A stretch of 64,000 nt of DNA from Methanobacteriota archaeon (GCA_020696385.1 JAEHCQ010000005.1:104311-168310), one strand, 5' to 3'; shown: positions 41,267-59,534, counted from the stretch's first letter. A program made the numbers and translations. The notes: generated by a model from the letters alone, not told the origin.

Positions 41267-41304
41267 TAGCAGGTTTGTGTTTATTGTTATTGAGAGGTTC
41301 ACAC

Positions 41305-41817
41305 ATGGCCAGCACTTACAAATACACAATATTTCCAAGCAGAGTGGGAGACATCTTCATAGCCAGCACACCCAAGGGTATTTTCAAACTTCATTTCCCG
41401 GCCAGTGATATCAAACGGGAGAGTGTTGAAGCCTATTATGATTGCAAATTGGAAAAGGATGACAAGGCTTTCACTGACATCAAAAAGCAAATGCTCGCAT
41501 ACCTGGCAGGCGACCTCAAGGAATTCGATGTCAAGATCGATTTTATCCGTGGAACCGAATTCCAGAAGCAGGTATGGAACAAGCTGCTGGAGATACCCTA
41601 TGGTGAGGTGCATTCCTATCAATGGATGGCTGAAGAAGTACACAGACCAACTGCGTTCAGAGCAGTTGGTGGCGCGAATCACAATAATCCCATCCCGATA
41701 ATCGTACCATGCCACAGAGTGATCGGTAAGAACGGCAAAATGGTCGGCTATGGTGGCCCGAGCATCAAAGGCCAGGAATTGAAAAGAAGTCTTCTGGAGA
41801 TGGAAGGCGCATTGTAG
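41305..41817 (+). CDS. ogt: Methylated-DNA--protein-cysteine methyltransferase
   Basis: GTEFQKQVW, IPYGEV.SY, RAVGGA, active site PCHRV. Confidence 0.95.
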   Translation: MASTYKYTIFPSRVGDIFIASTPKGIFKLHFPASDIKRESVEAYYDCKLEKDDKAFTDIKKQMLAYLAGDLKEFDVKIDFIRGTEFQKQVWNKLLEIPYGEVHSYQWMAEEVHRPTAFRAVGGANHNNPIPIIVPCHRVIGKNGKMVGYGGPSIKGQELKRSLLEMEGAL

Positions 41818-41920
41818 TTTCCTACTCCACTTGGCTTACAAAATTATCCATTTTACTCAATTTGCTCAATATATATTTATTAAGCAATGTTTAAGTATTC
41901 ATAGAATATTCTGAGTAAAC

Positions 41921-42898
41921 ATGTCAGTCTCTATTATAGGCACACGTGGGTGCGGAAAATCTACATTCATCGGACTTCTCCATCAGGGTATGGAAATGTA
42001 TACAAACAAGAATCCAGATAATTTCGTTTATTATGTAACTGCTGAAGTGGGTGATAAGATCCTGGACATAAGGAACAACCTGCTCCAGGGAGAATATCCC
42101 GCTGCCACCACTCGGCATCAGCTGGAACAATTGAGATTCCTCATGGGTTTCAAACCAGTGGGTGTGGAGAAGGTAGTCAATCTCGTTAAGAACTTCTCAT
42201 CCTTCGGCCAGTACGGAGATTACCTGGGTATGATCCTCAGTGTTTATGATATCGCGGGAGAGGATATCCAGGAATTCAAGATCAATAAGCAGGTGACGCA
42301 GATCCTGAAGCAGGTCTTCGAGTCCAATATCCTTGTTATCATTGTGGATTGTGCTAAGTTCACCAATGCCACCAGTGGCAGAAAATACGTGGACATGCTC
42401 GAATATGACAAGGAACTGGCTGTCATCATAGCTGCCTATGTCGAATACAGAAGCAAGGGCAAGTTCAAGGAGAAAGTGAACCCCATCTTCGTATTCGCAA
42501 AGATGGACGCACTGGACACAGAAATTGCCAGTAATTACTTCGACAAGCTGGAAAGAAAATACGATGATAAATACAATTACGATACAGGCAATGAGCTTAT
42601 GGAATCCTACCTCAGTGCTTCAAGAGCCGCAGTATATGGGGCGCAGAAAGTTGGCGTGCCATTGGAGACCGCGAAGTTCTTCTACAGCTGGGTTCAGGAA
42701 GACAAGATCGACGGAGTTGCCCAGGCTGGTGCACAGCATAAATTGATGATCACAAAGCCGGATGGCGGACATACAAGAAATGTATTCCCGGATCACATGT
42801 ACGAGGAGTTCCTGAATTACATCAGAACACTGTCATACATGTACTCGGATCCAAAGGAACATGTCGAGGATATCTTCGGTAAGGTCGGCGGCAAATAA
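41921..42898 (+). CDS. TRAFAC-class GTPase domain protein (double-GTPase-like)
   Basis: G1 GTRGCGKST, G2 PAATT, G3 YDIAGE, G4-like AKMD; 325 aa. Confidence 0.75.
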   Translation: MSVSIIGTRGCGKSTFIGLLHQGMEMYTNKNPDNFVYYVTAEVGDKILDIRNNLLQGEYPAATTRHQLEQLRFLMGFKPVGVEKVVNLVKNFSSFGQYGDYLGMILSVYDIAGEDIQEFKINKQVTQILKQVFESNILVIIVDCAKFTNATSGRKYVDMLEYDKELAVIIAAYVEYRSKGKFKEKVNPIFVFAKMDALDTEIASNYFDKLERKYDDKYNYDTGNELMESYLSASRAAVYGAQKVGVPLETAKFFYSWVQEDKIDGVAQAGAQHKLMITKPDGGHTRNVFPDHMYEEFLNYIRTLSYMYSDPKEHVEDIFGKVGGK

Positions 42899-42942
42899 GA
42901 ACATGCCAGTTCACGATCCCTATCTCAAAGGTGGTAGCGCGT

Positions 42943-45207
42943 ATGCAGGATGAACTTCATATAGGTGAATTCGACAATAATCCCTTCACAATAGAGGGCG
43001 GTAAATTCCTTACTGGCCGAACCGCGGTCATGGGGATGAGCGGCTCTGGCAAGAGTTATCTCATCGGAGTTCTGTGCGAGGAGCTTTGCAAGGCGGACCT
43101 TCCCTTCATCATTATCGATCCAGAGGGAGAATACAAGAGCCTGAAAGAGAAGTTCGATATTGTCTGGGCCTGTAATGACCCGGAAGCTGATGTGCTTCTC
43201 AATTTCCAAATATGCGAGAAGCTGGCAGAGGTCGCCGTCAATAAGAACCTCCAGCTTATTTTTGACACATCCGAGTCGAGTAATGAGTTCGACCTTGTGG
43301 AAGAATTCCTCAAACATTTTTACATTATCGAGGACAAGGTAAGAAAACCCATGCTTCTAATAATGGAAGAAGCAGACAGGTTCGCTCCCCAGAGCAAGGG
43401 CGATAGGATCGACGAGCTGATGGAAATAAGCAGGCGCGGTAGAAAGCGAGGCATCGGCCTTGTGATCGCCACCCAGAGACCTGCGATGGTGGACAAGAAT
43501 ATCTTATCCCAGTGCGGAAACCAGTTCATCGGCAGGCTGAGAACGGAGAATGACCTGAATGCGGTCAGCCTCTTCTTCAGGTCAAAGTCCACACTCAATA
43601 CAATTCCAGATCTGGAAGACGGCCATTTCTACTCAATGGGCGATATTTCTTCCACCATCCAGAACGTGCATATCAGAACAAGGGAGACCACACACGGTGG
43701 CGGAACTCCCGGAAGAGCCAGCAGTAAAAAGAATGAACTGAAAGACCTGAAAATATTCCAGGACAAGCCGATGGTGATGCCATCGACACCATCACCGCCA
43801 ATAGCTGGATCTCCTAATCTCGTGATCGAGGATGTTTTCCTCATCTACAATGATGGAAGATTGATCAATCATCAAACTCGTAGGCTCAAGCCGGATGTGG
43901 ACAATGAGATACTGAGCAGTATGTTCACGGCAGTCCAGAGCTTTATCAAGGATTCTTTTGGAAGTGGTGGCAGGACGAAGGTTCTCGAGCGTCTGGACTT
44001 TGGAGACAATTCGGTATTCATCGAGCATGGTGAGAATTGTTATCTCGCCATGGCCGCGATGGACATTGGGGAGGAGGTACTGCAGGAGCAGCTCAAATGC
44101 GCCAGCAGGGACATATCCAGAGAATATTCCGCCCCCTTGCGAAAGTGGAACGGGGACTTCGATGAATTCGCTGGTGTGGAATCTTATATCCAGAAGCTTC
44201 TGGCAGGAGAATACAAAAAAGGATGTATGCTCATCAATCCTTCGAAGGCTGCATCAACCGGATCAGAGATCTCGGCTTCAGACATGAAATCCAAAACCGA
44301 GCCAGTGGTGGAGAAAGCAGATGAAATATCTGATACAATTCAAGATCCGGGAAGCAAGCCAGCTCCCTCGATCATTAATAATATTAGCAGTAGTAATAAC
44401 AATAAAGGAAGAGATAAAATGGAAATAGATCATTTTGTGTGGTATCCTATCCACGGAAAGGGGTACCAGGATAAGCCAGTAGCGATATCGGGGGATTTCA
44501 ATCCAGGATTGTTCACCAATGTGTTCAAGAAGGAGTTCGCTCCGCTTATGATGAGTTACAGTCAGAAGGATTATCGTGGCTTCATGCTCTTTGACAAGCC
44601 CAATATACGCCATGTTCTCTTCTCCTTCATCTACCACAAGGTCATCGACGAATACGGTAGAAAAGGGGTGATCCATCATTCTGCCATCATTGACAGAAAG
44701 GATCTGCAGAGCGGTAAAGTTTCCTTATTCGACATCGAAGAGGCTATGAACAAGTTCGACGAGGCAAACCCCGCGCCAAAGGGAGACATACCGCCTTTGG
44801 AAGTTCCAGCCTATGAGCCTGGGCAATACAGATACCAGGACAAGATATTCAAGTACATTTCAAAGGCTGCTGTCGAAATACTGGCAACCAGGATGATGAC
44901 CGCCAGCCGTAACCGAACATCATTCAGATGCCAGGGCGCGGGCACGAAGGCCAGGAAGAATATCGCATTATATCTGGTCGAACTGCTGGGCTTCAGGGGT
45001 GGAATACCGATCTCATTCACGACAGAGAGACCGATATCGGCTGAATATTACGGCTTCTTCAATCTCGCGGTTACCGAGCGCGCGATAGCACCAGATGCGA
45101 ATGCCGAGGACTGGGCAGTGATCAACTGGGATGAATTGAATGTCGGCATGCCCAGGGTGGGCGGCAAAGAGGAAGTTTACAAATTAATTGATGATGCCTT
45201 CTCCTGA
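42943..45207 (+). CDS. HerA/DUF87-type ATPase fused to a longin/roadblock-like domain and a C-terminal GAP1-N-like domain
   Basis: Walker A GMSGSGKS, IDPEGEY, Walker B LLIMEEAD, RGRKRG, ATQRP; middle IEDVFLIYNDGRLI..LSSMFTAVQSFIKDSF; C-terminal DEYGRKGVIHHSAI; GTG start at 42931 also possible. Confidence 0.75.
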   Translation: MQDELHIGEFDNNPFTIEGGKFLTGRTAVMGMSGSGKSYLIGVLCEELCKADLPFIIIDPEGEYKSLKEKFDIVWACNDPEADVLLNFQICEKLAEVAVNKNLQLIFDTSESSNEFDLVEEFLKHFYIIEDKVRKPMLLIMEEADRFAPQSKGDRIDELMEISRRGRKRGIGLVIATQRPAMVDKNILSQCGNQFIGRLRTENDLNAVSLFFRSKSTLNTIPDLEDGHFYSMGDISSTIQNVHIRTRETTHGGGTPGRASSKKNELKDLKIFQDKPMVMPSTPSPPIAGSPNLVIEDVFLIYNDGRLINHQTRRLKPDVDNEILSSMFTAVQSFIKDSFGSGGRTKVLERLDFGDNSVFIEHGENCYLAMAAMDIGEEVLQEQLKCASRDISREYSAPLRKWNGDFDEFAGVESYIQKLLAGEYKKGCMLINPSKAASTGSEISASDMKSKTEPVVEKADEISDTIQDPGSKPAPSIINNISSSNNNKGRDKMEIDHFVWYPIHGKGYQDKPVAISGDFNPGLFTNVFKKEFAPLMMSYSQKDYRGFMLFDKPNIRHVLFSFIYHKVIDEYGRKGVIHHSAIIDRKDLQSGKVSLFDIEEAMNKFDEANPAPKGDIPPLEVPAYEPGQYRYQDKIFKYISKAAVEILATRMMTASRNRTSFRCQGAGTKARKNIALYLVELLGFRGGIPISFTTERPISAEYYGFFNLAVTERAIAPDANAEDWAVINWDELNVGMPRVGGKEEVYKLIDDAFS

Positions 45208-45210
45208 GGT

Positions 45211-45546
45211 GTGATGATTATAGAAGAAGTTGCTGATCAACCTGAAACTGAGAATGAGCCAATTAAGGACGATGCGACATTATCTTTGATATTTGGAATA
45301 GTGTCATTGATACTGAATCCCGTGTTCATCATGTTCCCCCTGTCCTTCATTGTGGGAACTCATTTGCTCGGGATATTCATCAGCACGCCATTCGCATTAT
45401 TGGCGATCTTATTATCATATCATTATTGGAGAAAAGATAAGGAGGATTTTAAGTCGATAATCGGGATCACATTTTCATTGACCACACTGATGTTCATCAT
45501 CATATTGTTCTCCGTTCTCCTATACTCTGGATTCGAGGTATTTTGA
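45211..45546 (+). CDS. Small membrane protein (DUF4190-like)
   Basis: ATLSLIFGIVSL...ALLAILL...SIIGITFS pattern; 3 TM segments; 3 nt after the HerA fusion. Confidence 0.55.
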   Translation: MMIIEEVADQPETENEPIKDDATLSLIFGIVSLILNPVFIMFPLSFIVGTHLLGIFISTPFALLAILLSYHYWRKDKEDFKSIIGITFSLTTLMFIIILFSVLLYSGFEVF

Positions 45547-45572
45547 TCGATAAACATATGTCTAGCTGAGCA

Positions 45573-47078
45573 TCATTTCACAACTTGGAACTTGTAAACA
45601 GGATCCCCATCCAGTTCTTCCGCATTCTGTACTATCTCCGGAAGGTCATACAGTTTCCTGTTCTCATTGTAGATTTTGAGAAGCGGCTCCCAGTATCTGA
45701 TCGAATCCTGATACATGATCACATCATCATGCTTGAGTATCTGGCATATTGAGAAAAGACCACCGGGATATGTCCTGATGACATCGATGATCCTCTGATT
45801 CTCATTGTACCATCTGTAGAATTTATTGCCTTTATTCCACTTCATGATGAATTTTGTAAGATTGTTCCGGACATCTTCATCATTGGCGATCCAGACCATG
45901 ACCTTGACTATGTCATTGTCCGCCAAGAGGTCGATCTTCTTCACCAGCGGCCCGTAATCCTTATTGTCCCAGTCATTGAAGATATCCTTCCACCCTTCAA
46001 TGTTATCCGGGGCCTGGATACCATGCTCGGCGATAAAAGCAGCTTCCTCCGCTTGCTTCTTCGCCTCCTCGTCCATCTTCTTCTTTTCCTCAAGCTCCAG
46101 GATACGGAGTTTCTCTTCCTCGACCTTTCTCTTCTCCTCTTCGATCTTCATCTGAGCCTCTTCTTCCTTCCTGGCCAACTCCTTCTGCTCCATCTCAAGC
46201 CTCACTTGCTCCTTCCTCTCGGCGATCTTCAGGGCTTCCATCTCCATGGCCTGCCGTTTTTCCGCGGCAGCCTTGGCCTGGATCTCGATCTTGCGCCTTT
46301 CCTCTTCCTTGATCCTGAGGTGATGCTCCATCTTCAGGCGCTCTTCTTCTTTCGCCTTCAGAAGGCGACCGGCTTTGGCAGCGTCAGCCCGGCTTTTTTC
46401 GTATTCGATCTTCGCCCTGGCTTCCTCGCCCTTCTGGAGCTTCATCTTCATCTTAGCAGTGTGTGCTTCCTGCTTTTTCAGCTTGGCCGCGCTTTCATTC
46501 CTGAGCCTTTCCTCGACCAGAACCTGCGCCTGAAGCTGGGCTTTCAATCTTTCCTCTTCCATGAGCTTGGCCTTCAGCTCATGTTGGGCGCGTAGGTCTT
46601 CCTGCTTTTCCATGTCCAGCTCTTTTTTCAGGCGGATCTCCTCGGCCATCTTGAGCTCATGTTCTTTTCTCAATGCCTCGGCCTCTTCCTTCTCCTTGGC
46701 CCAGCGTGCGTCCCGCCTCTCTATCTTTTTCTTCAGATTGGTGATGTCGCGCTTGGCATCGCTCAGTTTGTCTGGGTCTTGTAATTTGTAATCAATTGCA
46801 TAAAAATCAGATTCCAGGGTGCGGATATCCAGTGCCCGGAGCTTCGTGCGCTGGGTGTTTATCTCCAAAAGGGCTTTCTCAAAACTTGCAAAGGCCTCCT
46901 CCACATCGGAAATTTTGCCATCATCTATGATCTTCGACAGACAGTTAACTACAAAACCCTGCTTTTTCCAGAATTCCAGCTTCACCCTGAAGCCATCCCT
47001 GGCCTCCATGTCCTCACGCTCTGTTGTTCTATTCTCCGCAACCCGATCGATTATTGATTTGGCACACATTTCAATCAC
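45573..47078 (-). CDS. Coiled-coil protein with globular N- and C-terminal domains
   Basis: ~250 aa E/K/R/A-rich helical core; no family recognised. Confidence 0.65.
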   Translation of the reverse strand: MIEMCAKSIIDRVAENRTTEREDMEARDGFRVKLEFWKKQGFVVNCLSKIIDDGKISDVEEAFASFEKALLEINTQRTKLRALDIRTLESDFYAIDYKLQDPDKLSDAKRDITNLKKKIERRDARWAKEKEEAEALRKEHELKMAEEIRLKKELDMEKQEDLRAQHELKAKLMEEERLKAQLQAQVLVEERLRNESAAKLKKQEAHTAKMKMKLQKGEEARAKIEYEKSRADAAKAGRLLKAKEEERLKMEHHLRIKEEERRKIEIQAKAAAEKRQAMEMEALKIAERKEQVRLEMEQKELARKEEEAQMKIEEEKRKVEEEKLRILELEEKKKMDEEAKKQAEEAAFIAEHGIQAPDNIEGWKDIFNDWDNKDYGPLVKKIDLLADNDIVKVMVWIANDEDVRNNLTKFIMKWNKGNKFYRWYNENQRIIDVIRTYPGGLFSICQILKHDDVIMYQDSIRYWEPLLKIYNENRKLYDLPEIVQNAEELDGDPVYKFQVVK

Positions 47079-47181
47079 CAGTCCCCACTTTCTTGAAAAC
47101 TAGAATGAAATGTTGATGTATTAAGTTTTGCTCTTACTCTTGCTCTTGCAAAGGTTATTACGTGCATAAGGACATCCTGCT

Positions 47182-47676
47182 TTGAACAATATGCTTCCCG
47201 AATGGCTGATCCTGGATCTTACGCAAAATCAACTGTATGGCCTTGTCTTTCTTATAGGCTCTTTCACAGTGGCCACCCTGAGCGATCTGAAGTACATGAA
47301 AGCACAATCGGAATTCGTCGAGATCTGGGTGCTGGCCTTCATTGTTTTTCTGGTTATCGACATCTGGAAATGGGATTCGCTGGATCAGACCCAGACCATG
47401 ATAAAATGGGCTATTATTTTCATATTCATGCTCCTTTCCCATCATTCGATCGGGGTCATATTCAAACTGGCTAGGGGAGATGTATTCGCATGTGCGGCGG
47501 TCATGGCACTCATGTCACCAGCTTTGATAGTCGTCTTCATCATAATTCTAAAAGTATCCGACCTATTGTTCAGGCCCATTCTGAGAAAGTTCGGGAGCGG
47601 CAATGCCTACCCCTTCATGCCCATTGTCATGTGTGGGACATTGGCGATAATGGGAATTGGACTGTATCTGGCGTAG
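47182..47676 (+). CDS. Polytopic membrane protein resembling A24 prepilin peptidases
   Basis: Several TMs; LSDLK and ARGD aspartates; C-terminal YPFMP. Confidence 0.5.
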   Translation: MNNMLPEWLILDLTQNQLYGLVFLIGSFTVATLSDLKYMKAQSEFVEIWVLAFIVFLVIDIWKWDSLDQTQTMIKWAIIFIFMLLSHHSIGVIFKLARGDVFACAAVMALMSPALIVVFIIILKVSDLLFRPILRKFGSGNAYPFMPIVMCGTLAIMGIGLYLA

Positions 47677-47763
47677 ACAGATACTGGCTAACACTAATTC
47701 TAATACAAATCGAGCAATTTGTTGATAGGAGTGAGAGTTATCGCATTATCTATCAGAGAGCAT

Positions 47764-49638
47764 TCAGAGAGCATTCCCACAGCTTGGGCAGGCTTTCCAG
47801 CCAGGCTGTGTCTCGGACCCACAATGTGGACAAGATGGTTTGCTGGACAGGGAACCTCCGCAAGCCGGGCAAGCTTTCCAGCCCGGCTGGGTGTCAGCCA
47901 TACAGCTTGGGCACTTATTGCCGCTCTGTTGCTGCTGAGCCGGCTGCACGCCTTGCTTGGATTGATCCACTGTGATGACATTAACTGGCTGCTGGCCAAC
48001 TCCATATCCTCCGCCCCCCACATATTGTGGTACATTCTGTTTGGATGATTCCATCATCTTCGCAGCCTGGCCAGTCATATCCACCTGATGATTTCTCTCG
48101 CGGTCCTCCGCGTCGCGGTAGGTGCTGATATTGTGCTTCTGACCCTCCGAGCGCATGAATTCCTCGGATGCCTCGCCTCCAACTGTTCCCAGCTGTCGCT
48201 TGGTAGCTTCCTGCTGTAGGGACTGCATCTGGATGGTCTTCTGATCGTACATTTTCTGAAGTATCTCCAATTTTTCAGTTGGAGCATCGATGATCTTCAT
48301 CTCCAGTTCGTGGATATCCGTTTGTAGCTGAGATATCTGGGCGTCAGCTGTCGTGACACCCATCTGCTGGGTATCCACATCCATCTTCTTCATGTCCTCG
48401 ACATGATCCTGCTCCTGAGCCTCCCTCATTCGCTTCGCTTCTTGAACCTGAGCAAATGCGTCCATGGCTATCTGAGCCTCGCCTTTTTCCTTGTCGATAT
48501 CAGCCTGATTCTGCGCCCTCTGGATATCCACATCGGTCATTCCAGCATCGCGTTGCTGGCGTATGTTCTCATCATGAGCCATACCGGACATGTCACGATC
48601 ATGCGTCTGGGCCATACTGTCCCTCTCCAGGGATGATGTCAATTGCATGGATGCCAGGCGATCGGCTCCCGCTTGCCCTCCGAAGGCAAGCGCCCATTCC
48701 TTCTCATTACTTGTCTTGTCAACTTCATAATCGCGATTCAGGATATTGATGCTGGCCTTCATGTCAAAGTCCTTGTCGAACTCCGCTTGTTCGAAGATCT
48801 GCGTCTGTTTCTTCTTGTGGGCTGCGAGTGCGTCACTGGCTGTCCTGTCAAAGACCATGTATAACTTGAGTAAGTTCAATCCCCACATTTCCATGGTCTT
48901 TCTTAGCTCGACCTCGGCCGTGGTCTCGATCTGCTTGATGAGATCCAGGTTCCCCTTGATATCACTGGCTTCAACCGCTGACAATTGTGGTGTGAGAACG
49001 CCTACCAGTGCCTCATCGTTTATCAATTCCTCAAGATCGGATTTGAAAAGGAACTTGCCAACTGCCATATCTGTCCTGTTCTGGAATGTGAGCTTCTTGA
49101 GTATGCCGCCAGTGAAGATATTCCTGTTCCTACCCCACCATGTGCTGTGCTTCTCATTCTGTGTTGGCTGGTATGGTTCGGCAGACCTCATCAGATTTAT
49201 GATCCTGGTGACATTGTTCTGGTTTATCTGGACACGCATGGTGCAGGTTCCCTTGACCTCTTCATTATCGCGTGAAAGTATACCTTGAACTTCCCATTCT
49301 GGCTGACCGTTCTGATCGACCTCGGGTTTTCCAGAAGGATCGAGCTTCCACATGCTCTTTCCGATCTGAAGGTTCATATCCATTGGAACCGTTGAAACAA
49401 ATAGAAGTTGAACGGATTCTCCTCCGCCCATCTTGGACCTGAACCAGTCGATGACCCCTTGCCTTGATACTTCCAGCTTGGTCTGTGTGAGAACATCCTC
49501 GATCTTGCCGTTCCTGATGTACATCACGGCTTCTCCAGGACCTACTATTGCTTCCTTTAAGAAATTCGGTATCTGGTCTCTGTCCACTAATTGAGCGATT
49601 ACTTCTTCGCCATCTATGTTATTCCACATTTGTATCAT
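47764..49638 (-). CDS. SPFH/band-7-like domain plus coiled coil plus double zinc ribbon protein
   Basis: IVGPGEAVMYIRNGKIED SPFH-type N-terminus, ELRKTMEMWGLNL, long coiled coil, C-terminal CPSC..CPACG..CPHCG..CPSCG. Confidence 0.75.
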   Translation of the reverse strand: MIQMWNNIDGEEVIAQLVDRDQIPNFLKEAIVGPGEAVMYIRNGKIEDVLTQTKLEVSRQGVIDWFRSKMGGGESVQLLFVSTVPMDMNLQIGKSMWKLDPSGKPEVDQNGQPEWEVQGILSRDNEEVKGTCTMRVQINQNNVTRIINLMRSAEPYQPTQNEKHSTWWGRNRNIFTGGILKKLTFQNRTDMAVGKFLFKSDLEELINDEALVGVLTPQLSAVEASDIKGNLDLIKQIETTAEVELRKTMEMWGLNLLKLYMVFDRTASDALAAHKKKQTQIFEQAEFDKDFDMKASINILNRDYEVDKTSNEKEWALAFGGQAGADRLASMQLTSSLERDSMAQTHDRDMSGMAHDENIRQQRDAGMTDVDIQRAQNQADIDKEKGEAQIAMDAFAQVQEAKRMREAQEQDHVEDMKKMDVDTQQMGVTTADAQISQLQTDIHELEMKIIDAPTEKLEILQKMYDQKTIQMQSLQQEATKRQLGTVGGEASEEFMRSEGQKHNISTYRDAEDRERNHQVDMTGQAAKMMESSKQNVPQYVGGGGYGVGQQPVNVITVDQSKQGVQPAQQQQSGNKCPSCMADTQPGWKACPACGGSLSSKPSCPHCGSETQPGWKACPSCGNAL

Positions 49639-50156
49639 TATTTCCACCCCCTCAAGAAATCTTCCCTATCCTTGTAAGAATTCCTTGAACCGGTAATATA
49701 CTGGCGAAGGCTTCTGAGTTCCTTCACGGCATCAATTTCATCGCCATTCATTATCATTCCCTCGATAACTCCCGTGGCTTCGGTGACATTGACGATATTT
49801 TCCAAAATGTTGAGATCGAACTCCACCAGGGTCTTGAGATCACCTTCACCTGGCGATCTTGATTTGTTAGTTGAAAAGAAACTGTACTGATGGCCAACCA
49901 CGGACATTGTGATATCATTGGAGAAGATATCCAGCTCGTCCTTGACCTTTTTAAGTGAGTTTATGGAGTCCGTATCCTTCTTGTCATAGAGTATGTCCAG
50001 GATATTCCGCGTATTCTTCACGGACTTGTCGATCTCGGCCATCAACTTCTTTCTGACCAGATTGTCATCCTCTTTTACCTTATCCTTTCTGTATCCCGTG
50101 TACCCGGACACCATTTTGCAAACAGAAGTTATCGCAGTGATCAGAACCATATTCAT
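49638..50156 (-). CDS. Conserved helical hypothetical protein coupled to the SPFH gene
   Basis: SGYTGYRKDKVKEDDNLVR, YSFFS, LVEFDLNIL; TAATG stop/start overlap with the SPFH gene. Confidence 0.7.
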   Translation of the reverse strand: MNMVLITAITSVCKMVSGYTGYRKDKVKEDDNLVRKKLMAEIDKSVKNTRNILDILYDKKDTDSINSLKKVKDELDIFSNDITMSVVGHQYSFFSTNKSRSPGEGDLKTLVEFDLNILENIVNVTEATGVIEGMIMNGDEIDAVKELRSLRQYITGSRNSYKDREDFLRGWK

Positions 50157-50213
50157 ACTCCCCTGTGTTCTTATGTATTGAAAGGTTATTTAAGTTAATA
50201 AGGGTTTCGGGAT

Positions 50214-52103
50214 ATGGAGGTTGAATACTTGATCCATAAAGGGTTCGGAAGGACAAGAGCCATTGTCATATTATGCATGACCTTTCTTTTATTCAGTGGT
50301 CTCTCTCCACTTATGATACATAATGCCAGTGCCAATACAGTCTCTGGTTACATATACCCGGATGAATACGTGATCTATTACATCGATGTCGATTCCTATA
50401 CATATATCGACATCTCGGTAAGCTGGTATGACAGCTCCAATGATATCGATCTCTACCTCTACGACGAGTCTTCCACATTGGTTGACGATAGTGAACTTAC
50501 AAGTACAAACACCGAGTCCATATACTACTATCCATCAAGCACTGGCTCTTACGCCCTTTACATATATGGATACAGTATCTCCGGCAGTGAATATTATACC
50601 CTTTACTGTAACTTCTATGCCTCCCTGAGCACGGTGGACGATACACCAACGACCACGGATGACAGCTACGAGCCAGATGATTCATATTCGTCCGCATCGT
50701 ACATATCAGATGGCAGTGTCCAATCACATAGTATTCTGGATGGTGGGCTGGATGTCGATTGGGTGACCTTCACCATATACGAGACCAGTGATGTGGTCAT
50801 TGAAACATCAGGTTCAAGCGGCGATACCCAGATATATCTGTACGATGACTCGGGAGTGCCATCCGTCTACTCCGATGTGAATGATGATGGAGGAACTGGC
50901 TCCTTTTCAAGAATCAGCAAGAATTTCCTGGCCTCGGGCACTTATTATGTTAAGATAATAGAATATGGCCAGGATCAGGAAATATCATCATATAGTGTTG
51001 AATTTTCAGCCGAGCCCAGCCTCGATCTCGGTATTGGCGACATCGAGAACCTGGTCTATCTGGACTATATCTGCTTTTTCATATTCTTTATAATTTTCAT
51101 AGTGATAGTTGCGGGAATAAGATCATCCCGCAAGAAGAAAAAGAAAAAGAAGCAAAGGAATCTGGAGCAACAGATCCAGTCCCAGCATTATCAATCTCAA
51201 CAACAATACCAGCAGCAACAGTCTAGACAAGCTCAGCAATATGCTCCACAGCAGGCTCCGCGTGTTCAGCAGCAACAAGTCAAACAGACTCAGCAGACCC
51301 AGGGGGTTCAGCAGACCCAGCAGGTCCAGCAAACCCAGCAACCACAATACCAGCAACAATACCGAACCCCAGTGCCAGCACCAGTAGTATCCACTCGGCA
51401 AGATACTGCTAAAGAAGATCGTTCAAGGCAAGAGGCGGAGCAGAGGCAGAGGGACGAGAGAGAAAGGAAGGAGAGGTTCGAAGCTGACAAACGAGTGAGG
51501 GAAGAGAATGAGAGAAAAGCCAGGGAGGAAAAAGGACGCCTGGCTCGGATCGAGGAAGAGAAACAGAGATCAAGAAGCTATGACACACCTCAGGCCGAGA
51601 TGGACAGGCGAGCTACACAATACGAATCCATGGCCAGTATGCAGGAGAAGGAAAGCGAGAACATCCACGCGATGCTGCATACCAGTGAGGAATATGGAAG
51701 GCCATTACCTCCACCGCCACCACTTGATATGCCTCCGGCAGATGATCTCCATTCCCAGCCGAGCGAGAAGATGACCAAAGCTCTGGAAGATTCATGCAAG
51801 CTCATCATGCCAACATATCTTGAGCCGGATACCACATCCGAGATAATCATAGACATTGAGAATGATTCTGGAATGAACCTGGGCAATGTCACTGTCGACC
51901 TCTCTGATCTGCAGAAATATTTCGAAATTCAGGATAAGATAGAATTCCCGGGTATTCGAAATGGCATGACCCTGAGAGAAGATGTCAAATTCAAACCCAA
52001 ATACGATGAGGGATCCTTCCCCGTGGTGGTGTCCATAGTTTCAGAAGGTTCCACTGTGAAATTAAATTACACGATCAAGGTCGGAGGCACGGAGATATAT
52101 TAG
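50214..52103 (+). CDS. Single-pass receptor-like protein: two PPC-like extracellular domains, TM, Q-rich and coiled-coil linker, Ig-like IKVGGTEIY domain
   Basis: Signal ..ASA; NDIDLYLYD and DDSYEPDD..DVDWV..GDTQIYLYD PPC motifs; TM plus RKKKKKKK; C-terminus IKVGGTEIY. Confidence 0.8.
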   Translation: MEVEYLIHKGFGRTRAIVILCMTFLLFSGLSPLMIHNASANTVSGYIYPDEYVIYYIDVDSYTYIDISVSWYDSSNDIDLYLYDESSTLVDDSELTSTNTESIYYYPSSTGSYALYIYGYSISGSEYYTLYCNFYASLSTVDDTPTTTDDSYEPDDSYSSASYISDGSVQSHSILDGGLDVDWVTFTIYETSDVVIETSGSSGDTQIYLYDDSGVPSVYSDVNDDGGTGSFSRISKNFLASGTYYVKIIEYGQDQEISSYSVEFSAEPSLDLGIGDIENLVYLDYICFFIFFIIFIVIVAGIRSSRKKKKKKKQRNLEQQIQSQHYQSQQQYQQQQSRQAQQYAPQQAPRVQQQQVKQTQQTQGVQQTQQVQQTQQPQYQQQYRTPVPAPVVSTRQDTAKEDRSRQEAEQRQRDERERKERFEADKRVREENERKAREEKGRLARIEEEKQRSRSYDTPQAEMDRRATQYESMASMQEKESENIHAMLHTSEEYGRPLPPPPPLDMPPADDLHSQPSEKMTKALEDSCKLIMPTYLEPDTTSEIIIDIENDSGMNLGNVTVDLSDLQKYFEIQDKIEFPGIRNGMTLREDVKFKPKYDEGSFPVVVSIVSEGSTVKLNYTIKVGGTEIY

Positions 52104-52131
52104 GCTGGATGGCCTTTGAGATGGTGATACA

Positions 52132-52950
52132 ATGAAAGTCGCGTTTAGATCAGATGTCGGAAAACTAATGCAGATCAATGAGGATATTGCAGGATGGGTG
52201 ACCTTGAGGACATCCGGGATGTCAGAGATGTTGAATACCCCTGGTACCTCTGAAATGTCTGTGATATCAAAAATATCACAGCAACCAGGCATTGATCGAA
52301 TTGATATTCTTTTCGTATCGGATGGAATGGGCGGCCATAAGAAAGGAGATGTGGCAAGCAGGATAGCCACCCAATACCTGACATACCTCGTCCAGAACGC
52401 CATATCCCGATCAGAGGGCGACATAGTTCAGGAGCTGGTCGTGAAACTGCCTGGCTACATGAAGAACATAAACACTCATTTGAGATCCCAGGCAAGCGGC
52501 AATCCAGACCTAAGTGGAATGGGATGCACGCTCACTGCCGCCATAATGATCGGAAACAGCATGGTGATAGTCCATGCTGGTGATAGCCGGCTTTACCACA
52601 TAGCTGACGGGCGATTGCGCCAGGTGACAAAGGACCATTCTTTTGTTCAAGAGCTTCTTGATAAAGGTGAGATACAGCCAGATGAGGCTTTTGACCATCC
52701 AAAAAAGAATAAAATTCATACCGCCCTCGGCCCCAAGGATGACATAAATGCTGATGCCTTTGTCGAGGTCTGGGAAAGTGGTACATTACTCTTCTGTACT
52801 GATGGCCTGAATGACATGCTGAGAGATCACGAGATACTGGATATCGTGAATGCCAATCCAGATCCCGAAGATATGTGCGAGAAATTGGTCGAGGCGGCTC
52901 TTGAAAAGGGCGGGCATGATAATGTCAGTGTGTTGGTTGCCAGTAAATGA
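52132..52950 (+). CDS. PP2C/Stp1-family Ser/Thr phosphatase
   Basis: SDVGK...NED, VSDGMGGH, MGCTL, HAGDSRLY, TKDHS, CTDGL, GGHDNVS. Confidence 0.95.
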   Translation: MKVAFRSDVGKLMQINEDIAGWVTLRTSGMSEMLNTPGTSEMSVISKISQQPGIDRIDILFVSDGMGGHKKGDVASRIATQYLTYLVQNAISRSEGDIVQELVVKLPGYMKNINTHLRSQASGNPDLSGMGCTLTAAIMIGNSMVIVHAGDSRLYHIADGRLRQVTKDHSFVQELLDKGEIQPDEAFDHPKKNKIHTALGPKDDINADAFVEVWESGTLLFCTDGLNDMLRDHEILDIVNANPDPEDMCEKLVEAALEKGGHDNVSVLVASK

Positions 52951-53048
52951 TCGGATCTGAAATTTGAGGAGATGGTAAAATTATAACAGACTGGATATTC
53001 GACAATGTTTTCCTTTTCATATTCTTATTCTTCTTTTTATTCTTCGCC

Positions 53049-53630
53049 ATGGCCTATGTCATGTACTACATATTCGTGAAGAAGAACCCCGCGCTTGAAC
53101 ACCTGGGTGTCGGCAAACAGATGGACAATATCCTCAAGCCCACACAGCAACAACAGCAACATCAACAGCAGCATCCGAATTATCAGACACAACCACAACA
53201 TCAAGCATACCCTGGCTCTGCACCACCTGTGAGCCAGGGGCAGCGCGTGCAACCGCAACAACAGCGACCAGCTCCCTCACCCCCTGGAGAGGGGATGTCC
53301 AGTATCAACCTGAAAGATCATTATTCGATCCAATTACCGCATTTTATCAATTCTGGCATGACTGAATCGGTCATAGTCACCCTGTATAACAATACCAGCA
53401 CGGAAATAGATGACATAAGTATCGATCTTTCAGACATGACGGATTACTTCGATATCGAGGGAGAGGTGAAAGACTATCGATTGAAACCAGGAGCCGAGAT
53501 CGTCAAGACCCTGAGGATTAGGCCAAAATTTGAAGAAGGTGTGTTCCCATTCAAGATAAAAATAAGTACTGGTTCGATCTATGTAGAAGACGAGCACTCG
53601 ATCAAGGTCGGGGGCACGGAGATCTATTGA
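53049..53630 (+). CDS. Membrane-anchored Q-rich protein with IKVGGTEIY domain; true start probably near 52980
   Basis: Frame open upstream to 52968, encoding a hydrophobic helix; Q/P-rich linker; same C-terminal domain as 50214 and 53640. Confidence 0.8.
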   Translation: MAYVMYYIFVKKNPALEHLGVGKQMDNILKPTQQQQQHQQQHPNYQTQPQHQAYPGSAPPVSQGQRVQPQQQRPAPSPPGEGMSSINLKDHYSIQLPHFINSGMTESVIVTLYNNTSTEIDDISIDLSDMTDYFDIEGEVKDYRLKPGAEIVKTLRIRPKFEEGVFPFKIKISTGSIYVEDEHSIKVGGTEIY

Positions 53631-53639
53631 GGTAGGAAA

Positions 53640-54500
53640 ATGAGCAATCAAAAAGAATTCACAGGAAGTTGGATACTATTGGTCCTATTGTTCATCATAT
53701 TCTTTCCACTTGGGATTATCTATTTCTTTGTCATGTTGAAAGATAGAGGTTCAGCCTATGCTCCTCCATATTATCAGACAGTCCAGACCAATCAGACAAG
53801 AAATGCATATGCACCACCTCAATATCAGCCGAGTACCCAGCAACCACCAGCACAGTATTCTGGACAGAGCACCCAGAGACCATCCGGTCAAAATACCAAT
53901 CAGACAAGAAGTGCACAACAGGGTCAGTATTCACAGCCCTCACAATCATCACAGCCAGCCCAGAATGTGCCTCAGTACGAACAGCCAGCTCAATACAGCC
54001 AGCCACAGTACAAAGCTCCACAATACAATTCACCTCAGCAAACGAATCAAATGCAAAAACCACCAGCCTACACAACATCGCAGACAACAAGCCAGAGCCC
54101 ACCAAATGTGGCTAGAGCTCCTGCGGCCCAGCAGGCTCCAATAGCAGTAAGGCCTCAGAAAATCATGTCCGAGGGCGATATCAGCTCCCTTTACAGTCTC
54201 CAGGTTCCCAGCTTCATGGATCCTGACATGACGGAAGAGATCATGATCAGGCTGAACAATGACTCTGGCGATGATATCGAGAACATGCACATAGATTTCT
54301 CGGATCTCAGAAGCTTTTTCGACATAGATGAGGATGTCAATATCCCCTACTTTGGAGATGGTGTCGTACTGGAGAGAAGGGTGAATATCAAGTCGAAGGA
54401 AAGCTCTGGCAGCTTTCCCGTTAGAGTGAAAATATCCGCGAATGGAAAGACAGTCACGGAGAGGTTCACTATCAAAGTTGGTGGAACCGAGATATATTAA
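53640..54500 (+). CDS. Membrane-anchored Q/P-rich protein with IKVGGTEIY domain
   Basis: FTGSWILLVLLFIIFFPLGIIYFFV TM, Q/P/S/T/Y-rich linker, same C-terminal domain. Confidence 0.85.
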   Translation: MSNQKEFTGSWILLVLLFIIFFPLGIIYFFVMLKDRGSAYAPPYYQTVQTNQTRNAYAPPQYQPSTQQPPAQYSGQSTQRPSGQNTNQTRSAQQGQYSQPSQSSQPAQNVPQYEQPAQYSQPQYKAPQYNSPQQTNQMQKPPAYTTSQTTSQSPPNVARAPAAQQAPIAVRPQKIMSEGDISSLYSLQVPSFMDPDMTEEIMIRLNNDSGDDIENMHIDFSDLRSFFDIDEDVNIPYFGDGVVLERRVNIKSKESSGSFPVRVKISANGKTVTERFTIKVGGTEIY

Positions 54501-54543
54501 GTAAGCAATTCCCGATTTTGTCAAGACTAATTAATAGATTACG

Positions 54544-56967
54544 TCACTTATTCGTGTTGAAGGCGACTCCATCCTGCAAATTGATGTCACCGCCGCCTTC
54601 CCCAATGTTCGACTTGTAGATCACACTGTCCTTAATATCGACATTGTAGGTGACCTGGGTCACCAGCATCGCCTTTTCCAGCCGGATCGCTCTGTCAATA
54701 GATTCAAACTGTCCCTGCAGGAATTTTTCTGCAATATCCGGGTCTATGGAATAACCATCGAATCTGAACTCGATGGTGCCATCCTCTTTTCTCCAACCAC
54801 CGCATAACATCAGGAAACTGAGCGGACTCTTCGTGGGCTTTCCAGCGTATAGAAGCTGGAAACTGTTCACGTCCTCGTACTTGCCCACGCAATGGAGATT
54901 GCTGCAAGCATCGGATAATCGAGATCTGGCCTTCTCTATCGTGATATCACTGTACATGATCTGACGCGATGCCCTTGGCAAAGTCTTGATGGACATCATG
55001 AATTCATGCTCTCTCATCTCCAGTGGCTCGATGAGCGGCATGATGTTTCCAGTGTCCACCACGGGCGCGTTTATGCGCCTTTTCTTGCCCATGTGATCGT
55101 GATATGAAATGTCAAAGTGTATCTTGGCCTTCATCGCTCTCTTGGCCTTCATGATGAAGGTTATTGCCTGCGATTCATTGGAACCCAGGTATGGAATATC
55201 CCGGACTCGCGAATCTGGCTGTAATAATTCCAGGCCTTCGGGTATGTCCAGTGTGATAGATACCCGATTGTGAGTGTATGGAGATACGTTATTCAGCTTA
55301 AGCTGAACATTGATCTTATCACCATCAATGGTCCTGTCAACCTCGGCATCCAGACCTCCTGAACTGGGTCTGAAGCTCTCGCCGTATCTGAAGTACAGGT
55401 CCTCGTCACGGACCAGTCTTCCGCCAACTCTGACTTTCATCGGAACCGTGAAGTCCCCGCCAGAGCCTGCATCCTTCAGGGTCATCTTTCTTTCATGGTA
55501 TCTTTCCTGACCTGGCATCAGATCGTATTTGAGGTTCAAATCCTTATCACAGGTGAATAATTCACCCGCGCCCACGTAATCGACAACGATATTCTTCCAT
55601 GGAAGATCCGAATTGTTCTTCACTGTCGATCGGAGATCAAGCTGATTGCCATTCCAGTCCCATGATGTGGTGATCTCCAGATCATTGATCTCCTCATAAA
55701 ATTCCTGTATCTTGTTCTTGTCGCTGATGAATTCAAGGTGAATGTAAGGCTCTCTGGGCTTATCCGGATTATAGACCAGCCAGATATCGTCCCCGTCCTG
55801 AAGTTTTTTGAATTTACCGGAAATTACACGAGCCTTGTTCAGGAAAGTTCCATTGTGACTGTCGCAATCGGTTATCACCCAGTCCCCGCTTCCCGCGGCA
55901 TTCATGATCTCCGCGTGTTTCGGGCTGGACACGTATTTCGCAGGCAGGTATACATCATTCTGCGGTGACTTGCCGATCCTGTTCTTCGATTTTTCCAGAA
56001 AGAACACCGTCCCGGGCTTCACACTAGGGTCCTGGCTGTTTATCACTTTGATGAGCGGTTTGAATCGAATTATATCCTCGATACCGGACAGCGTGACCTC
56101 CACATCCCTCAATCTGAATCTCAATTGAGGGTGGCGCTGGGTACTCCCCTGTATCAGGTTGCTGAATATACTAGCTCTGCGAAGACTGAGATAATCCTTG
56201 TCATTTGCCAGGAATGGTGGGGATGAGCTGGATAGGAGGAAATACAATGTCGCGCCCAATGAGAAGATATCATTGGCCTTCGTGGGCTTTGTCCTCGCCA
56301 TGACTTTTCCGGGCGGAGGTGGGGGAGGGAAATTATGGTTATTGTTGCTATGTCCAGGAGGTGGTGGTGGGAATCTGGAATTGTTATTGTGATTATTGTG
56401 ACCACCATTCTGTGAAAGCTCTGGTGGTGTGTATGAGCCATGGGACACATTGGCAGTCACGAGCTCATCATGATGGACATTATAGGCAGTTCCGAAGTCA
56501 ATGAGAATGGGTACCTTGTTCGGGCCCAGCAGGATATTTTTTGGGCAAATATCCCTGTGGATTATTCCCTCACCATGCATGTATGATATGACATCGCACA
56601 GTCTTTTCAAAATGTCCAGGGCTTCCTCATTGGTCGCTTTACAGCAATCATACACCTCTGCCAGGCTCTTTCCCTCGACATAATTCATCACAAGACCATT
56701 GCTCTTGTGAATGTACTCCACGAACTTCACGATCTGGGGATGATCCAGCATGGCCATGACATTGGCTTCCTGCCTGATGGAATCACAATATAGATCATAC
56801 TTATGCTTGACATCATGCTTTGGGAGTTTCAGGACCAGCTTATCATCACTGCCCACGGCCTTGACAACATATAGTATGCTCATGCCGCCGCGACCCAGCT
56901 CGCGCTCGACCACGTATCTTTCCTCTACGATGTCGCCTTTGGACAGAACTCTCGAACCATATAGCAC
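54544..56967 (-). CDS. Hanks-type Ser/Thr kinase plus FHA plus Ig-like and adaptin-appendage-like C-terminal domains
   Basis: LGRGGMS, LVLK, HRDICPKN, DFG, YTPPE, DIFSLG; FHA RIGK...VSSPKHA...DCDSHNGTFLN...LQDGD. Confidence 0.9.
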   Translation of the reverse strand: MLYGSRVLSKGDIVEERYVVERELGRGGMSILYVVKAVGSDDKLVLKLPKHDVKHKYDLYCDSIRQEANVMAMLDHPQIVKFVEYIHKSNGLVMNYVEGKSLAEVYDCCKATNEEALDILKRLCDVISYMHGEGIIHRDICPKNILLGPNKVPILIDFGTAYNVHHDELVTANVSHGSYTPPELSQNGGHNNHNNNSRFPPPPPGHSNNNHNFPPPPPPGKVMARTKPTKANDIFSLGATLYFLLSSSSPPFLANDKDYLSLRRASIFSNLIQGSTQRHPQLRFRLRDVEVTLSGIEDIIRFKPLIKVINSQDPSVKPGTVFFLEKSKNRIGKSPQNDVYLPAKYVSSPKHAEIMNAAGSGDWVITDCDSHNGTFLNKARVISGKFKKLQDGDDIWLVYNPDKPREPYIHLEFISDKNKIQEFYEEINDLEITTSWDWNGNQLDLRSTVKNNSDLPWKNIVVDYVGAGELFTCDKDLNLKYDLMPGQERYHERKMTLKDAGSGGDFTVPMKVRVGGRLVRDEDLYFRYGESFRPSSGGLDAEVDRTIDGDKINVQLKLNNVSPYTHNRVSITLDIPEGLELLQPDSRVRDIPYLGSNESQAITFIMKAKRAMKAKIHFDISYHDHMGKKRRINAPVVDTGNIMPLIEPLEMREHEFMMSIKTLPRASRQIMYSDITIEKARSRLSDACSNLHCVGKYEDVNSFQLLYAGKPTKSPLSFLMLCGGWRKEDGTIEFRFDGYSIDPDIAEKFLQGQFESIDRAIRLEKAMLVTQVTYNVDIKDSVIYKSNIGEGGGDINLQDGVAFNTNK

Positions 56968-57082
56968 GATTACCAGTATATCGGATGATAATTAATAACT
57001 TACTGATAGACTTGACCACCGCCTCAGGACTAAATATCAAACATCACAAAACAATAAGACATTGAAGGCCCATCAGCCTTCA

Positions 57083-57379
57083 ATGGAGCTGGAGACGAAT
57101 ATCATACTTGGATATCTGGGACTCATCAATCTGATCGCCCTGATCATGTTCGGCATTGACAAATCAAAGGCCAAACGGGGTGGCAGAAGGATATCGGAGG
57201 CTGGCCTTTTCATGATATCGCTGGTAGGTGGGGCTTTCGGTGGTCTGCTGGGAATAGTGCTATTCCGACATAAGACCAGGAAGCTGGGTTTCAAGGCCAT
57301 CATGTTCATAATTGTTTTAATCAATATTTATTTATATTATTGGCTTTATACTAATTATATTATAGAAATTGCAATATAA
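57083..57379 (+). CDS. DUF1294-family membrane protein
   Basis: FGIDKSKA...RRISE..L...GGAFG...FRHKTRK. Confidence 0.88.
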   Translation: MELETNIILGYLGLINLIALIMFGIDKSKAKRGGRRISEAGLFMISLVGGAFGGLLGIVLFRHKTRKLGFKAIMFIIVLINIYLYYWLYTNYIIEIAI

Positions 57380-59314: not shown

Positions 59315-59534
59315 AAGTGGTCTTTAGTTAGTATCAATATTTGACATATTTACAATATCATAATTCACTTTAGTCTGGCTTTAAACATTAATTATTGAAA
59401 GATCAACTGTCGATGCCCTTCCTATGTAGGCAAAACGTTTATATTATAGTGTACATTGAATCTTAACAATGGTTACTAACAATAGTTAACCCGCGTCAAT
59501 AATTCAAAACCTGTAAAATATGGAGGAGAAAAGC

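Follow-up and report, generated by a model that had tools for sequence, protein, structure and literature searches.

A modular archaeal gene cluster that may encode a phospho-switched sub-membrane scaffold

The locus

This report concerns a cluster of twelve genes in a 64,000-nucleotide (nt) stretch of DNA, called the window below, which represents positions 104311-168310 of one contig (C46) of a Methanobacteriota archaeon (GCA_020696385.1, JAEHCQ010000005.1). The host genome, G000, measures 2.28 Mb and is 94% complete. In window coordinates, the twelve open reading frames (ORFs; g01 to g12) lie between the Ogt gene (41275-41817) and a DUF1294 gene (57062-57379). A reading made from the sequence alone (the sequence-only reading) had proposed a membrane signalling or conflict locus here, and all twelve genes that it described are present where it had placed them. 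The cluster is real, and several contexts that are independent of one another tie its parts together. Its build is modular, and it appears to be a hitherto undescribed variant of archaeal systems for membrane sorting or conflict. Our favoured reading, to which we give somewhat less than an even chance, is a sub-membrane scaffold for the handling of tagged membrane proteins, switched by phosphorylation.

The genes form at least five transcription units, and their strands alternate. The pair g07/g06 and the row g08-g11 diverge from a 57-nt spacer, as they do in the related genome G001, and g08, g09, g10 and g11 follow each other tightly on one strand. The features are listed here (aa, amino acids; TM, transmembrane; CTD, shared C-terminal domain).

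41921-42898, plus strand: g01, 325 aa, putative TRAFAC GTPase of the DO-GTPase2 kind (Pfam E 5.4e-6)
42931-45207, plus strand: g02, 758 aa, HerA/FtsK-type ATPase core (aa 1-265), mid domain and GTPase-associated C-domain
43807-44259, plus strand: mid domain of g02 (aa ~293-443)
44413-45204, plus strand: C-domain of g02 (aa 495-758)
45211-45546, plus strand: g03, 111 aa, two hydrophobic segments; begins 3 nt past g02
45573-47078, minus strand: g04, 501 aa, charged helical protein, coiled-coil by eye, with conserved N- and C-terminal parts
47182-47676, plus strand: g05, 164 aa, membrane protein with five hydrophobic segments
47764-49647, minus strand: g06, 627 aa, predicted SPFH domain (aa ~15-270), long charged helical region, double zinc ribbon (aa 579-627)
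49638-50156, minus strand: g07, 172 aa, helical; its 3' end overlaps the start of g06 by 10 nt
50214-52103, plus strand: g08, 629 aa, signal/TM segment, PPC ectodomain, TM segment, linker (K-rich, then Q-rich and charged) and CTD (nt 51768-52103)
52132-52950, plus strand: g09, 272 aa, PP2C phosphatase, between g08 and g10
52980-53630, plus strand: g10, 193 aa when counted from the ATG at 53049; CTD at nt 53295-53630
53640-54500, plus strand: g11, 286 aa, N-terminal TM segment, Q/P-rich linker, CTD (nt 54165-54500)
54544-56967, minus strand (convergent): g12, 807 aa, Hanks kinase (aa 18-190 and beyond), FHA (330-396) and a C-terminal half with a putative CTD-like immunoglobulin (Ig)-like domain (~440-525) and a possible adaptin-appendage-like region (538-788)
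54601-54636, minus strand: terminal motif IKDSVIYKSNIG of g12 (aa 778-789)

The SPFH protein and its partner

Pfam recognises in g06 the double zinc ribbon alone (DZR, E 6.6e-9), and an Atlas look-up gave a lead to Band 7 (score 0.92). A homologue search with g06 returned eight relatives besides itself, three of them with a precomputed Band_7 assignment. When g06 aa 1-330 and these relatives (alignment A2) were scanned singly, six of the nine sequences matched Band_7, g06 itself not being among them. A structural model of aa 1-330 had a predicted local distance difference test score (pLDDT) of 69 and reached Foldseek E-values down to 4e-6; among the matches listed, every row with E<=1e-3 was an SPFH protein, the chains being those of stomatin, HflK/C, prohibitin, flotillin, erlin and QmcA. 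On the strength of Band_7 in the relatives and the structural matches of the model, the prediction of a genuine SPFH domain and a double zinc ribbon in g06 holds. It has no hydrophobic segment.

The coupling of g06 to a partner gene, also proposed in the sequence-only reading, was borne out by a metagenome scan with the SPFH alignment, which yielded 63 loci. In 51 of these the SPFH gene is immediately preceded, on the same strand, by a relative of g07, and in 4 more such a relative is nearby; in the remaining 8 the SPFH gene starts <=170 nt from a contig end. The 12 loci without direct pairing are thus explained by contig ends or inserts. No match to the SPFH alignment was found in viral contigs. 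The g07 protein belongs to no known family and has no sequence relative in PDB.

The commonest other neighbours of the SPFH pair are one to five tandem genes (30 loci), which have varied N-termini (HEAT, SAP, TM segments and others) and share a C-terminus in which a SHOCT domain comes after the motif IKDSVLNRSxVGG. A divergent HerA-like ATPase and/or the mid domain of g02 occurs in 8 of the 63 loci, the mid domain being encoded either separately (146 aa) or as a fusion with the SPFH protein.

The sequence-only reading had regarded the membership of the middle genes as doubtful. For g04, which belongs to no family, support has been gained, since its relatives adjoin GTPases in two of twelve fetched regions (L137 and L138) and a g04-like protein (family 8) is found near the SPFH gene in 4 of the 63 loci. 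A likeness of g04 to a coiled-coil protein in genome G023 (E 0.01) was discarded, as it involved low complexity only. The g05 protein is 84% identical in G001, and the 183-aa hydrophobic protein that lies between the SPFH and g07 relatives in L065 and L138 has no sequence match to it.

The GTPase and the HerA fusion

The best Pfam family for g01 is DO-GTPase2, with a borderline score of 26.7 bits against a cut-off of 27. The same family is the top match for 11 of 13 g01 relatives, 5 of them above the cut-off. The motifs GTRGCGKS, DIAGED and AKMD, read from the alignment, are conserved in alignment A6, as is, across the g01 alignment, the DxxGE sequence with a glutamate after the Walker B glycine. 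The prediction of a TRAFAC GTPase, and its placement with DO-GTPase2, are thereby supported. Of 301 Thermoplasmata-class genomes, 35 contain relatives, mostly as two paralogues 0.1-1 kb apart.

The adjacent g02 contains the expected ATPase core of the HerA type (DUF87 at aa 10-77, Pfam E 5e-15; PADLOC HerA, E 6e-26). The match to HerA is limited to a P-loop core of ~265 aa; against the NCBIfam HerA equivalog the protein scores 57.9 bits (cut-off 970), so the full-length HerA architecture is not present. For the mid and C parts, which together span ~500 aa, no Pfam family was found. The Roadblock- or longin-like look of the mid domain is only our reading of the alignment, since a PDB sequence search with profiles of g01, the g02 C-domain, the mid domain and g07 returned nothing below E 0.03.

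What marks the C-domain is its constant company. A ~270-aa homologue of g02 aa 495-758 adjoins the GTPases in 8 of the 12 fetched regions, and in two of these 8 (G066 and G023) it is fused to a HerA core that lacks the mid domain. Predictions of a complex of g01 with the C-domain scored 0.52, 0.00 and 0.00 in three runs, which speaks neither for nor against binding. The sequence-only reading had pointed to the combination of GTPase and GAP1 in known conflict systems; GAP1 was not found here, neither in g02 (aa 280-440 and 480-758, E<=1) nor in 7 of 7 C-domain relatives scanned (E<=0.01).

The shared C-terminal domain

The proteins g08, g10 and g11 share a domain of ~110 aa that ends in ...IKVGGTEIY and match only one another in the genome, with 28-36% pairwise protein identity over the CTD. 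Pfam further finds a PPC domain in g08 (E 2.5e-7). The last 33 nt of the three genes (52069-52101, 53596-53628 and 54466-54498) are 79-91% identical at the DNA level, which is far above the rest of the domain and suggests either strong constraint or gene conversion. A model of the CTD (pLDDT 89) has the form of an Ig/macroglobulin-like sandwich, with no specific relative.

Although a word-based homologue search with the g11 CTD found only g11 itself, a CTD profile run against 1.84 billion representatives matched 178 proteins at E<=1e-3, 42 of them at E<=1e-30. The domain extends precisely to the C-terminus of the protein in 66 of the top 68 rows. Scans of 48 strong members revealed HEAT repeats in 14, other N-terminal domains in 10 (EMC3/TMCO1, PPC, bPH_3, LRR, Kelch in two, fn3 with NosD, CARDB, DUF835 and TPR) and no family in 24. 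Among 12 weaker members scanned, the CTD stands directly before a protein kinase domain in 4. It is present in 6 of 41 related genomes, and a 10-row alignment covers 7 genomic loci in two Thermoplasmata metagenome-assembled genomes and one from Woesearchaeota, with no locus on a metagenome contig. A partial match of 35 residues at the edge of a viral contig was not counted. In genome G036 the domain is fused to an EMC3/TMCO1-type insertase directly after SecY in a ribosomal-protein cluster, and to RnfD (L016, G036:C304, 5190-8150, and L015, G036:C159).

The sequence-only reading had viewed g08, g10 and g11 as membrane proteins with a shared cytoplasmic domain that act as variable receptors. 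The shared domain is confirmed, and the variable-receptor view is weakened by the occurrence of the CTD on an insertase, on RnfD and on soluble proteins of the HEAT, TPR, LRR and Kelch types; the CTD is therefore a general cytoplasmic tag and not a receptor-specific module. As to membrane location, g10 is a membrane protein only if translation begins upstream of its ATG. The frame runs upstream through a TM helix (...DNVFLFIFLFFFLFFA-MAYVMYYIFV...; 52968-53048) with a hydrophobicity of 2.78, in a stretch that resembles the TM-coding DNA of g08 (repeat D8) and contains no ATG, GTG or TTG. Possible starts are ATT (52980) and ATA (52983), with GGAG 8-11 nt upstream, and a non-canonical start for g10 is likely.

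A very large surface protein of the beta-helix/NosD type (59520-63998, >1493 aa, open at the window end) is encoded further downstream and is 94% identical in genome G002. A similar protein bears the Ig tag in one metagenome representative (P0043).

Kinase, phosphatase and the terminal motif

In g12, Pfam finds Pkinase (E 9e-32) and FHA (E 1e-13), and g09 matches PP2C_2 (E 2.2e-13, 50.7 bits against a cut-off of 24) and falls just under the cut-off of the NCBIfam Stp1 equivalog (219.5 bits, cut-off 230). The genome, scanned throughout as 13,035 six-frame ORFs, holds one FHA, one PP2C_2 and one long Hanks kinase, all in the cluster; a further kinase-family match of 209 aa lies outside and is taken by us to be Bud32-like. 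No FHA was found in genomes G002, G003, G004 and G036. Past its catalytic core, the kinase domain of g12 is interrupted by a low-complexity insert rich in Asn, His and Pro (...NNHNNNSRFPPPPPGHSNNNHNFPPPPPPG..., aa ~186-220, nt 56310-56410).

The claim that the kinase-FHA protein carries the same domain as the tagged proteins stands in part: after g08, g10 and g11 (~1e-43), g12 aa 452-530 is the only other match of the CTD profile in the genome, with scores that are marginal (hmmsearch E 0.004; hhalign probability 70%, E 4e-5). Further downstream, g12 aa 538-788 shows 22% identity over 255 aa to a non-kinase protein of G023 that adjoins a double-zinc-ribbon protein, and the Atlas leads for the C-terminal region are adaptin and coatomer ear families (scores 0.76-0.80). 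One row of genes in that genome, L041 (G023:C87, 6613-12419), comprises an AbiEii-type gene, a protein with Prok-RING_2, a double zinc ribbon and two copies of a DSV-type motif, a 668-aa relative of the C-terminal region of g12, and a coiled-coil protein that is truncated where the contig ends.

A regular expression for the client motif of the SPFH loci matches a single ORF of the window genome, at the C-terminus of g12 (IKDSVIYKSNIG), where the motif is conserved in G001. In the metagenome set it matches 46 of 343 called ORFs, which are spread over 39 of the 63 loci, and 45 of the 46 are on the strand of the SPFH gene.

Linkage and distribution

Parts that belong to different units in the window are joined elsewhere. 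In L138 (genome G250), the C-domain, two GTPases, a g04-like protein, an SPFH-zinc-ribbon protein, a TM protein and a g07-like protein are contiguous, and the metagenome locus L065 has the same arrangement. In L146 (G205), one strand carries the C-domain, two GTPases, a 1027-aa HEAT-kinase, three unknown proteins and a PP2C. The kinase and PP2C theme that the sequence-only reading had named together with such GTPases (described in the available text of PMC7159879) is thereby found again in one Thermoplasmata-class genome. Since associations of this type recur, that of g07 with SPFH included, the genes are not scattered or a chance row, and the refuting condition set in the sequence-only reading, homologues that never occur together, does not hold. 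A gene of the tubulin/FtsZ family lies in L138 (G250:C6, 6237-7121), 1.5 kb from the GTPase/SPFH cluster; a CetZ-like protein is linked to Halo_adaptin ESCRT loci, as far as the available text of PMC10936438 goes, and the parallel may be coincidence.

The entire cluster is found at the same site and in syntenic order in G001. Identity between G000 and G001 is 97% for g01 and 91% for g02, 47% for g08 and 50% for g10, and 58-81% for the flanking genes, the upper value applying to the Ski2-like helicase and Ogt. The high values of g01 and g02 relative to the flanks (window 41921-45207 compared with L034/L038) suggest very strong constraint or recent exchange.

Genome G002 is closer than G001 by its flanks (93%) and lacks three blocks. 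The first comprises g01 and the ATPase core, the second the g02 C-domain and the third g04-g12. The gaps in the DNA alignment (41920-43805, 44260-45189 and 45553-57048) have clean, domain-precise edges. What G002 retains (L033, G002:C22, 6775-8050, compared with window 41877-57349) is g03 and an intact, stand-alone mid-domain gene of 155 aa, which is 86% identical and lies under the upstream region of g01. Parsimony, on an unrooted comparison, suggests loss of the cluster in G002.

The flanks of the cluster consist of a Ski2-like helicase, PIN and Ogt genes on one side and DUF1294 and TauE genes on the other. The PIN_2 gene (40838-41266) lies between the helicase and Ogt in the window and in G003; a PIN match is absent from the matching stretch of G001 and G002, which points to a second small indel at the cluster edge.

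Comparison with known systems

Two known groups of systems resemble the cluster. The neighbourhoods of the archaeal endosomal sorting complex required for transport (ESCRT) contain SPFH proteins with coiled-coil and zinc ribbon, adaptin-appendage-like Ig domains, Ser/Thr kinases, phosphatases and FHA proteins, always together with Vps4 and ESCRT-III, and are divided into the clades Main, Halo_FHA, Meth_adaptin and Halo_adaptin, according to the available text of Makarova et al. (2024, mBio, PMC10936438). In that text only a minimal ESCRT system is described for Thermoplasmata, and its supplementary tables may list further loci. The likeness to the window extends to kinases with Ig-like repeats of the adaptin-appendage kind, to proteins in which an appendage-like region is connected to an ectodomain via a TM linker, comparable to g08, and to HEAT and beta-propeller proteins with Ig domains, comparable to the wider CTD family. 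The difference is in the nucleotide-hydrolysing enzymes: Vps4 and ESCRT-III define the ESCRT loci, as they are described in the same text, whereas here a DO-GTPase2-like GTPase and a HerA-type ATPase are encoded. No AAA+ gene is present in the cluster. Vps4_C has no match in the 94%-complete genome, with a control that was positive in 4 archaea, nor do Snf7 and PspA_IM30, the Snf7 control being weak (Sulfolobus alone, below the cut-off). The statement in the sequence-only reading that the system is not characterised in archaea thus needs qualification: its parts were described in ESCRT neighbourhoods in 2024 (PMC10936438, available text), and those always occur with the Vps4 and ESCRT-III that were not found here.

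The second group are the DO-GTPase/GAP1 systems, where a GAP1-N2 theme with kinase, PP2C and vWA is known from actinobacteria and where repeats such as HEAT, TPR, LRR and Kelch are listed as common effectors in conflict systems (Kaur, Burroughs, Iyer and Aravind 2020, eLife, PMC7159879, in its available text). Shared features, within what that text covers, are a TRAFAC GTPase of the DO-GTPase2 kind with DxxGE, usually in two copies in the relatives, a constant partner gene adjoining the GTPase, membrane-proximal components and, in some loci, an active kinase with PP2C. Here, by contrast, the partner has no match to GAP1-N, -M or -C and is fused to HerA, neither vWA nor a recognisable effector is present, the window has one GTPase instead of two, and the host is an archaeon.

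These likenesses are the basis for an anti-virus or other conflict function of the DO-GTPase type, in which the GTPase and its partner would form a switch, the fast-evolving Ig-tagged proteins would detect an invader at the envelope, a threshold would be set by the kinase, FHA and PP2C, and HerA, the SPFH cage or the membrane proteins would execute the response. Such a function would agree with the family assignment of g01 and its relatives and the usual pairing of the GTPases, with the kinase and PP2C theme of GAP1-N2 systems and the listing of CTD-bearing repeats among effectors (PMC7159879, available text), with the patchy presence of the cluster, with the gradient of conservation between G000 and G001 from g01 and g02 down to g08 and g10, and with AbiEii and HEPN-type genes near some related loci. 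PADLOC matches g02 to HerA/mad8 and g12 to mad6/PD-T4-6, but these are generic ATPase and kinase domains, and PADLOC gave no system-level match. Pfam, NCBIfam and PADLOC recognise no effector family (nuclease, protease, NADase, pore or other) in the 12 proteins. In addition, no GAP1 was detected in g02 or in the C-domain relatives scanned, the cluster has no vWA domain, and genes for integrases or other mobile elements are likewise missing from it. The CTD occurs as a fusion with the insertase next to SecY and with RnfD. Of 36 mostly near-complete genomes of one archaeal family, 22 have a member of the g07 family, a distribution that fits cell biology better than sporadic defence. On balance, we regard a conflict function as rather unlikely.

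Because neither GAP1 nor an effector and neither Vps4 nor ESCRT-III were found, the cluster belongs neither to the DO-GTPase/GAP1 systems nor to the archaeal ESCRT loci. A working analogy may be found in Bacillus subtilis, where the cytosolic SPFH-zinc-ribbon protein SamI/YdjI is recruited by membrane proteins and in turn recruits PspA (PMC13713150, available text), and in the membrane-anchoring role proposed for SHOCT-like domains (PMC11237479, available text). The PspA-YdjGHI (SamGHI) platform is alike in that a cytosolic SPFH protein with C-terminal zinc ribbon is encoded together with small membrane proteins, which there recruit the SPFH protein, the resulting platform recruiting a further factor. 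It differs, as far as that text describes it, in that no PspA was found here, that g07 has no family or solved-structure match, and that the clients here would be motif-bearing proteins and the kinase.

Membership in the MADS group was rejected since only mad6 (kinase domain) and mad8 (ATPase core) match, with no other PADLOC family; against NCBIfam MAD6, g12 scores 102.6 (cut-off 460). As a further comparison we considered Sulfolobus ArnA/ArnB with the ArnC/ArnD kinases, to which, judging by their titles, PDB entries 5a8j and 8s05 presumably belong. Here there is no vWA domain, ZnR-FHA protein or archaellum link, and the structural match is no better than that to many Ig-like domains. The g07 family, the CTD tag, the g02 C-domain and the motif have no match in Pfam, NCBIfam or PADLOC and no sequence match to solved structures. 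A literature search gave no account of the gene set, the g07 family, the C-terminal tag or the motif, while the supplementary tables of PMC10936438 and PMC7159879 may hold related loci.

A possible mechanism

A sub-membrane scaffold is favoured because the cluster resembles both the DO-GTPase switch and ESCRT-linked sorting and yet fails the defining features of each. The twelve genes would then form one modular system of three cassettes, which in other genomes function separately as well. The first would be a nucleotide switch, composed of the g01 GTPase and g02, in which the constant GTPase companion is fused to a HerA/FtsK-type ATPase and the mid domain. The second would be a scaffold, with the cytosolic g06, its dedicated partner g07, the coiled-coil protein g04 and the small membrane proteins g03 and g05. 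The third would be a phospho-switch, made up of g12, g09 and the three membrane proteins g08, g10 and g11 with their cytoplasmic Ig-like tag.

In such a system, g06 and g07 would build an SPFH platform at the inner face of the membrane, on which the kinase may dock via its C-terminal IKDSVIYKSNIG, the motif that marks the variable clients encoded with SPFH/g07 pairs elsewhere. The Ig and adaptin-ear-like regions of the kinase, together with FHA, would bind the Ig-tagged membrane proteins in a phosphorylation-dependent manner, and PP2C would reset this state. The GTPase and the HerA ATPase could power assembly, release or remodelling. The likely output would be clustering, sorting or turnover of tagged membrane proteins, as in ESCRT-linked loci, but without Vps4 or ESCRT-III.

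Several observations weigh against this scheme. All of its steps, binding, phosphorylation and localisation included, are inferred. The g07 protein of the window has no hydrophobic segment above the threshold, so that an anchoring role of g07 is unsupported. The homology of g12 to the CTD is marginal, and its likeness to an adaptin ear is a sub-threshold one (Alpha_adaptinC2, E 6.6e-4, 20.4 bits against a cut-off of 27.6). The divergence of g08 and g10 (47-50%, compared with ~81% for the flanks) and the patchy presence of the cluster also fit a conflict system. Furthermore, CTD genes exist in G036, where no FHA, Pkinase or g06 body was found at 72% completeness, and four genomes (G036, G017, G021 and G010) have no relative of a cluster gene in the CTD-bearing contigs that were fetched and, by Pfam, no kinase, PP2C or FHA in the ORFs beside the CTD genes. 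Relatives of kinase, PP2C and FHA are likewise missing from the 63 SPFH loci, both among the ORFs searched with the window proteins and among the families scanned with Pfam. Finally, the GTPase family and the g07 family (the latter in 48 of the 301 Thermoplasmata-class genomes) occur together in only 6 genomes; the family of genomes in which g07 is found in 22 of 36 has the GTPase in 0 of 36, whereas another has the GTPase in 11 of 37 and g07 in 0 of 37. The cassettes are largely independent at the genome level.

Taken by themselves, the last observations could mean that the window contains mere neighbours: two or three independent cassettes (GTPase/HerA, SPFH/g07, and kinase, PP2C and tagged proteins) that came to lie in a variable region and work separately. 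Each cassette does occur without the others in most genomes that bear it, the four CTD-bearing genomes without cluster relatives are from outside the genus, and alternating strands with at least five units are what independent cassettes would give. However, pairwise links recur across families (L138, L146, and the 8 loci in which SPFH/g07 is combined with HerA or the mid domain), the kinase bears the motif typical of clients in SPFH operons as the sole such ORF of its genome, and G002 lacks parts of all three cassettes. Mere neighbourhood seems to us distinctly unlikely.

The scaffold reading can be extended to a bolder proposal, for which the chances appear slim: an ESCRT-independent, SPFH-based cargo machine in Thermoplasmata-class archaea, in which the ear tag ...IKVGGTE[IV][YF] of membrane and repeat proteins and a short beta-strand motif of client proteins, IKDSVxN[RK]SNIG, would serve as addresses. 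The motif would dock clients, here the kinase-FHA-adaptin-ear protein, on an SPFH/g07 cage, perhaps by joining its C-terminal cap, and the DO-GTPase and HerA would replace Vps4.

Implications

Should the cluster serve defence instead, the lack of a recognisable effector in such a system would itself be of interest. If the scaffold reading is correct, archaeal SPFH scaffolds have dedicated partners, in the form of the g07 family, and an address motif on their clients, which would provide a handle on how such platforms choose their contents. DO-GTPase modules have so far been interpreted as switches in bacterial conflict; in archaea their partner protein would be a different one. The adaptin-ear, kinase and FHA themes, hitherto linked to archaeal ESCRT, would operate in its absence as well, in combination with a GTPase and a HerA ATPase, and if a cargo machine of the proposed type exists, it would represent a second archaeal route to adaptor-like sorting of membrane proteins. 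Such an ESCRT-free use of adaptin, kinase and FHA parts would bear on how the components of membrane sorting were assembled before eukaryotes.

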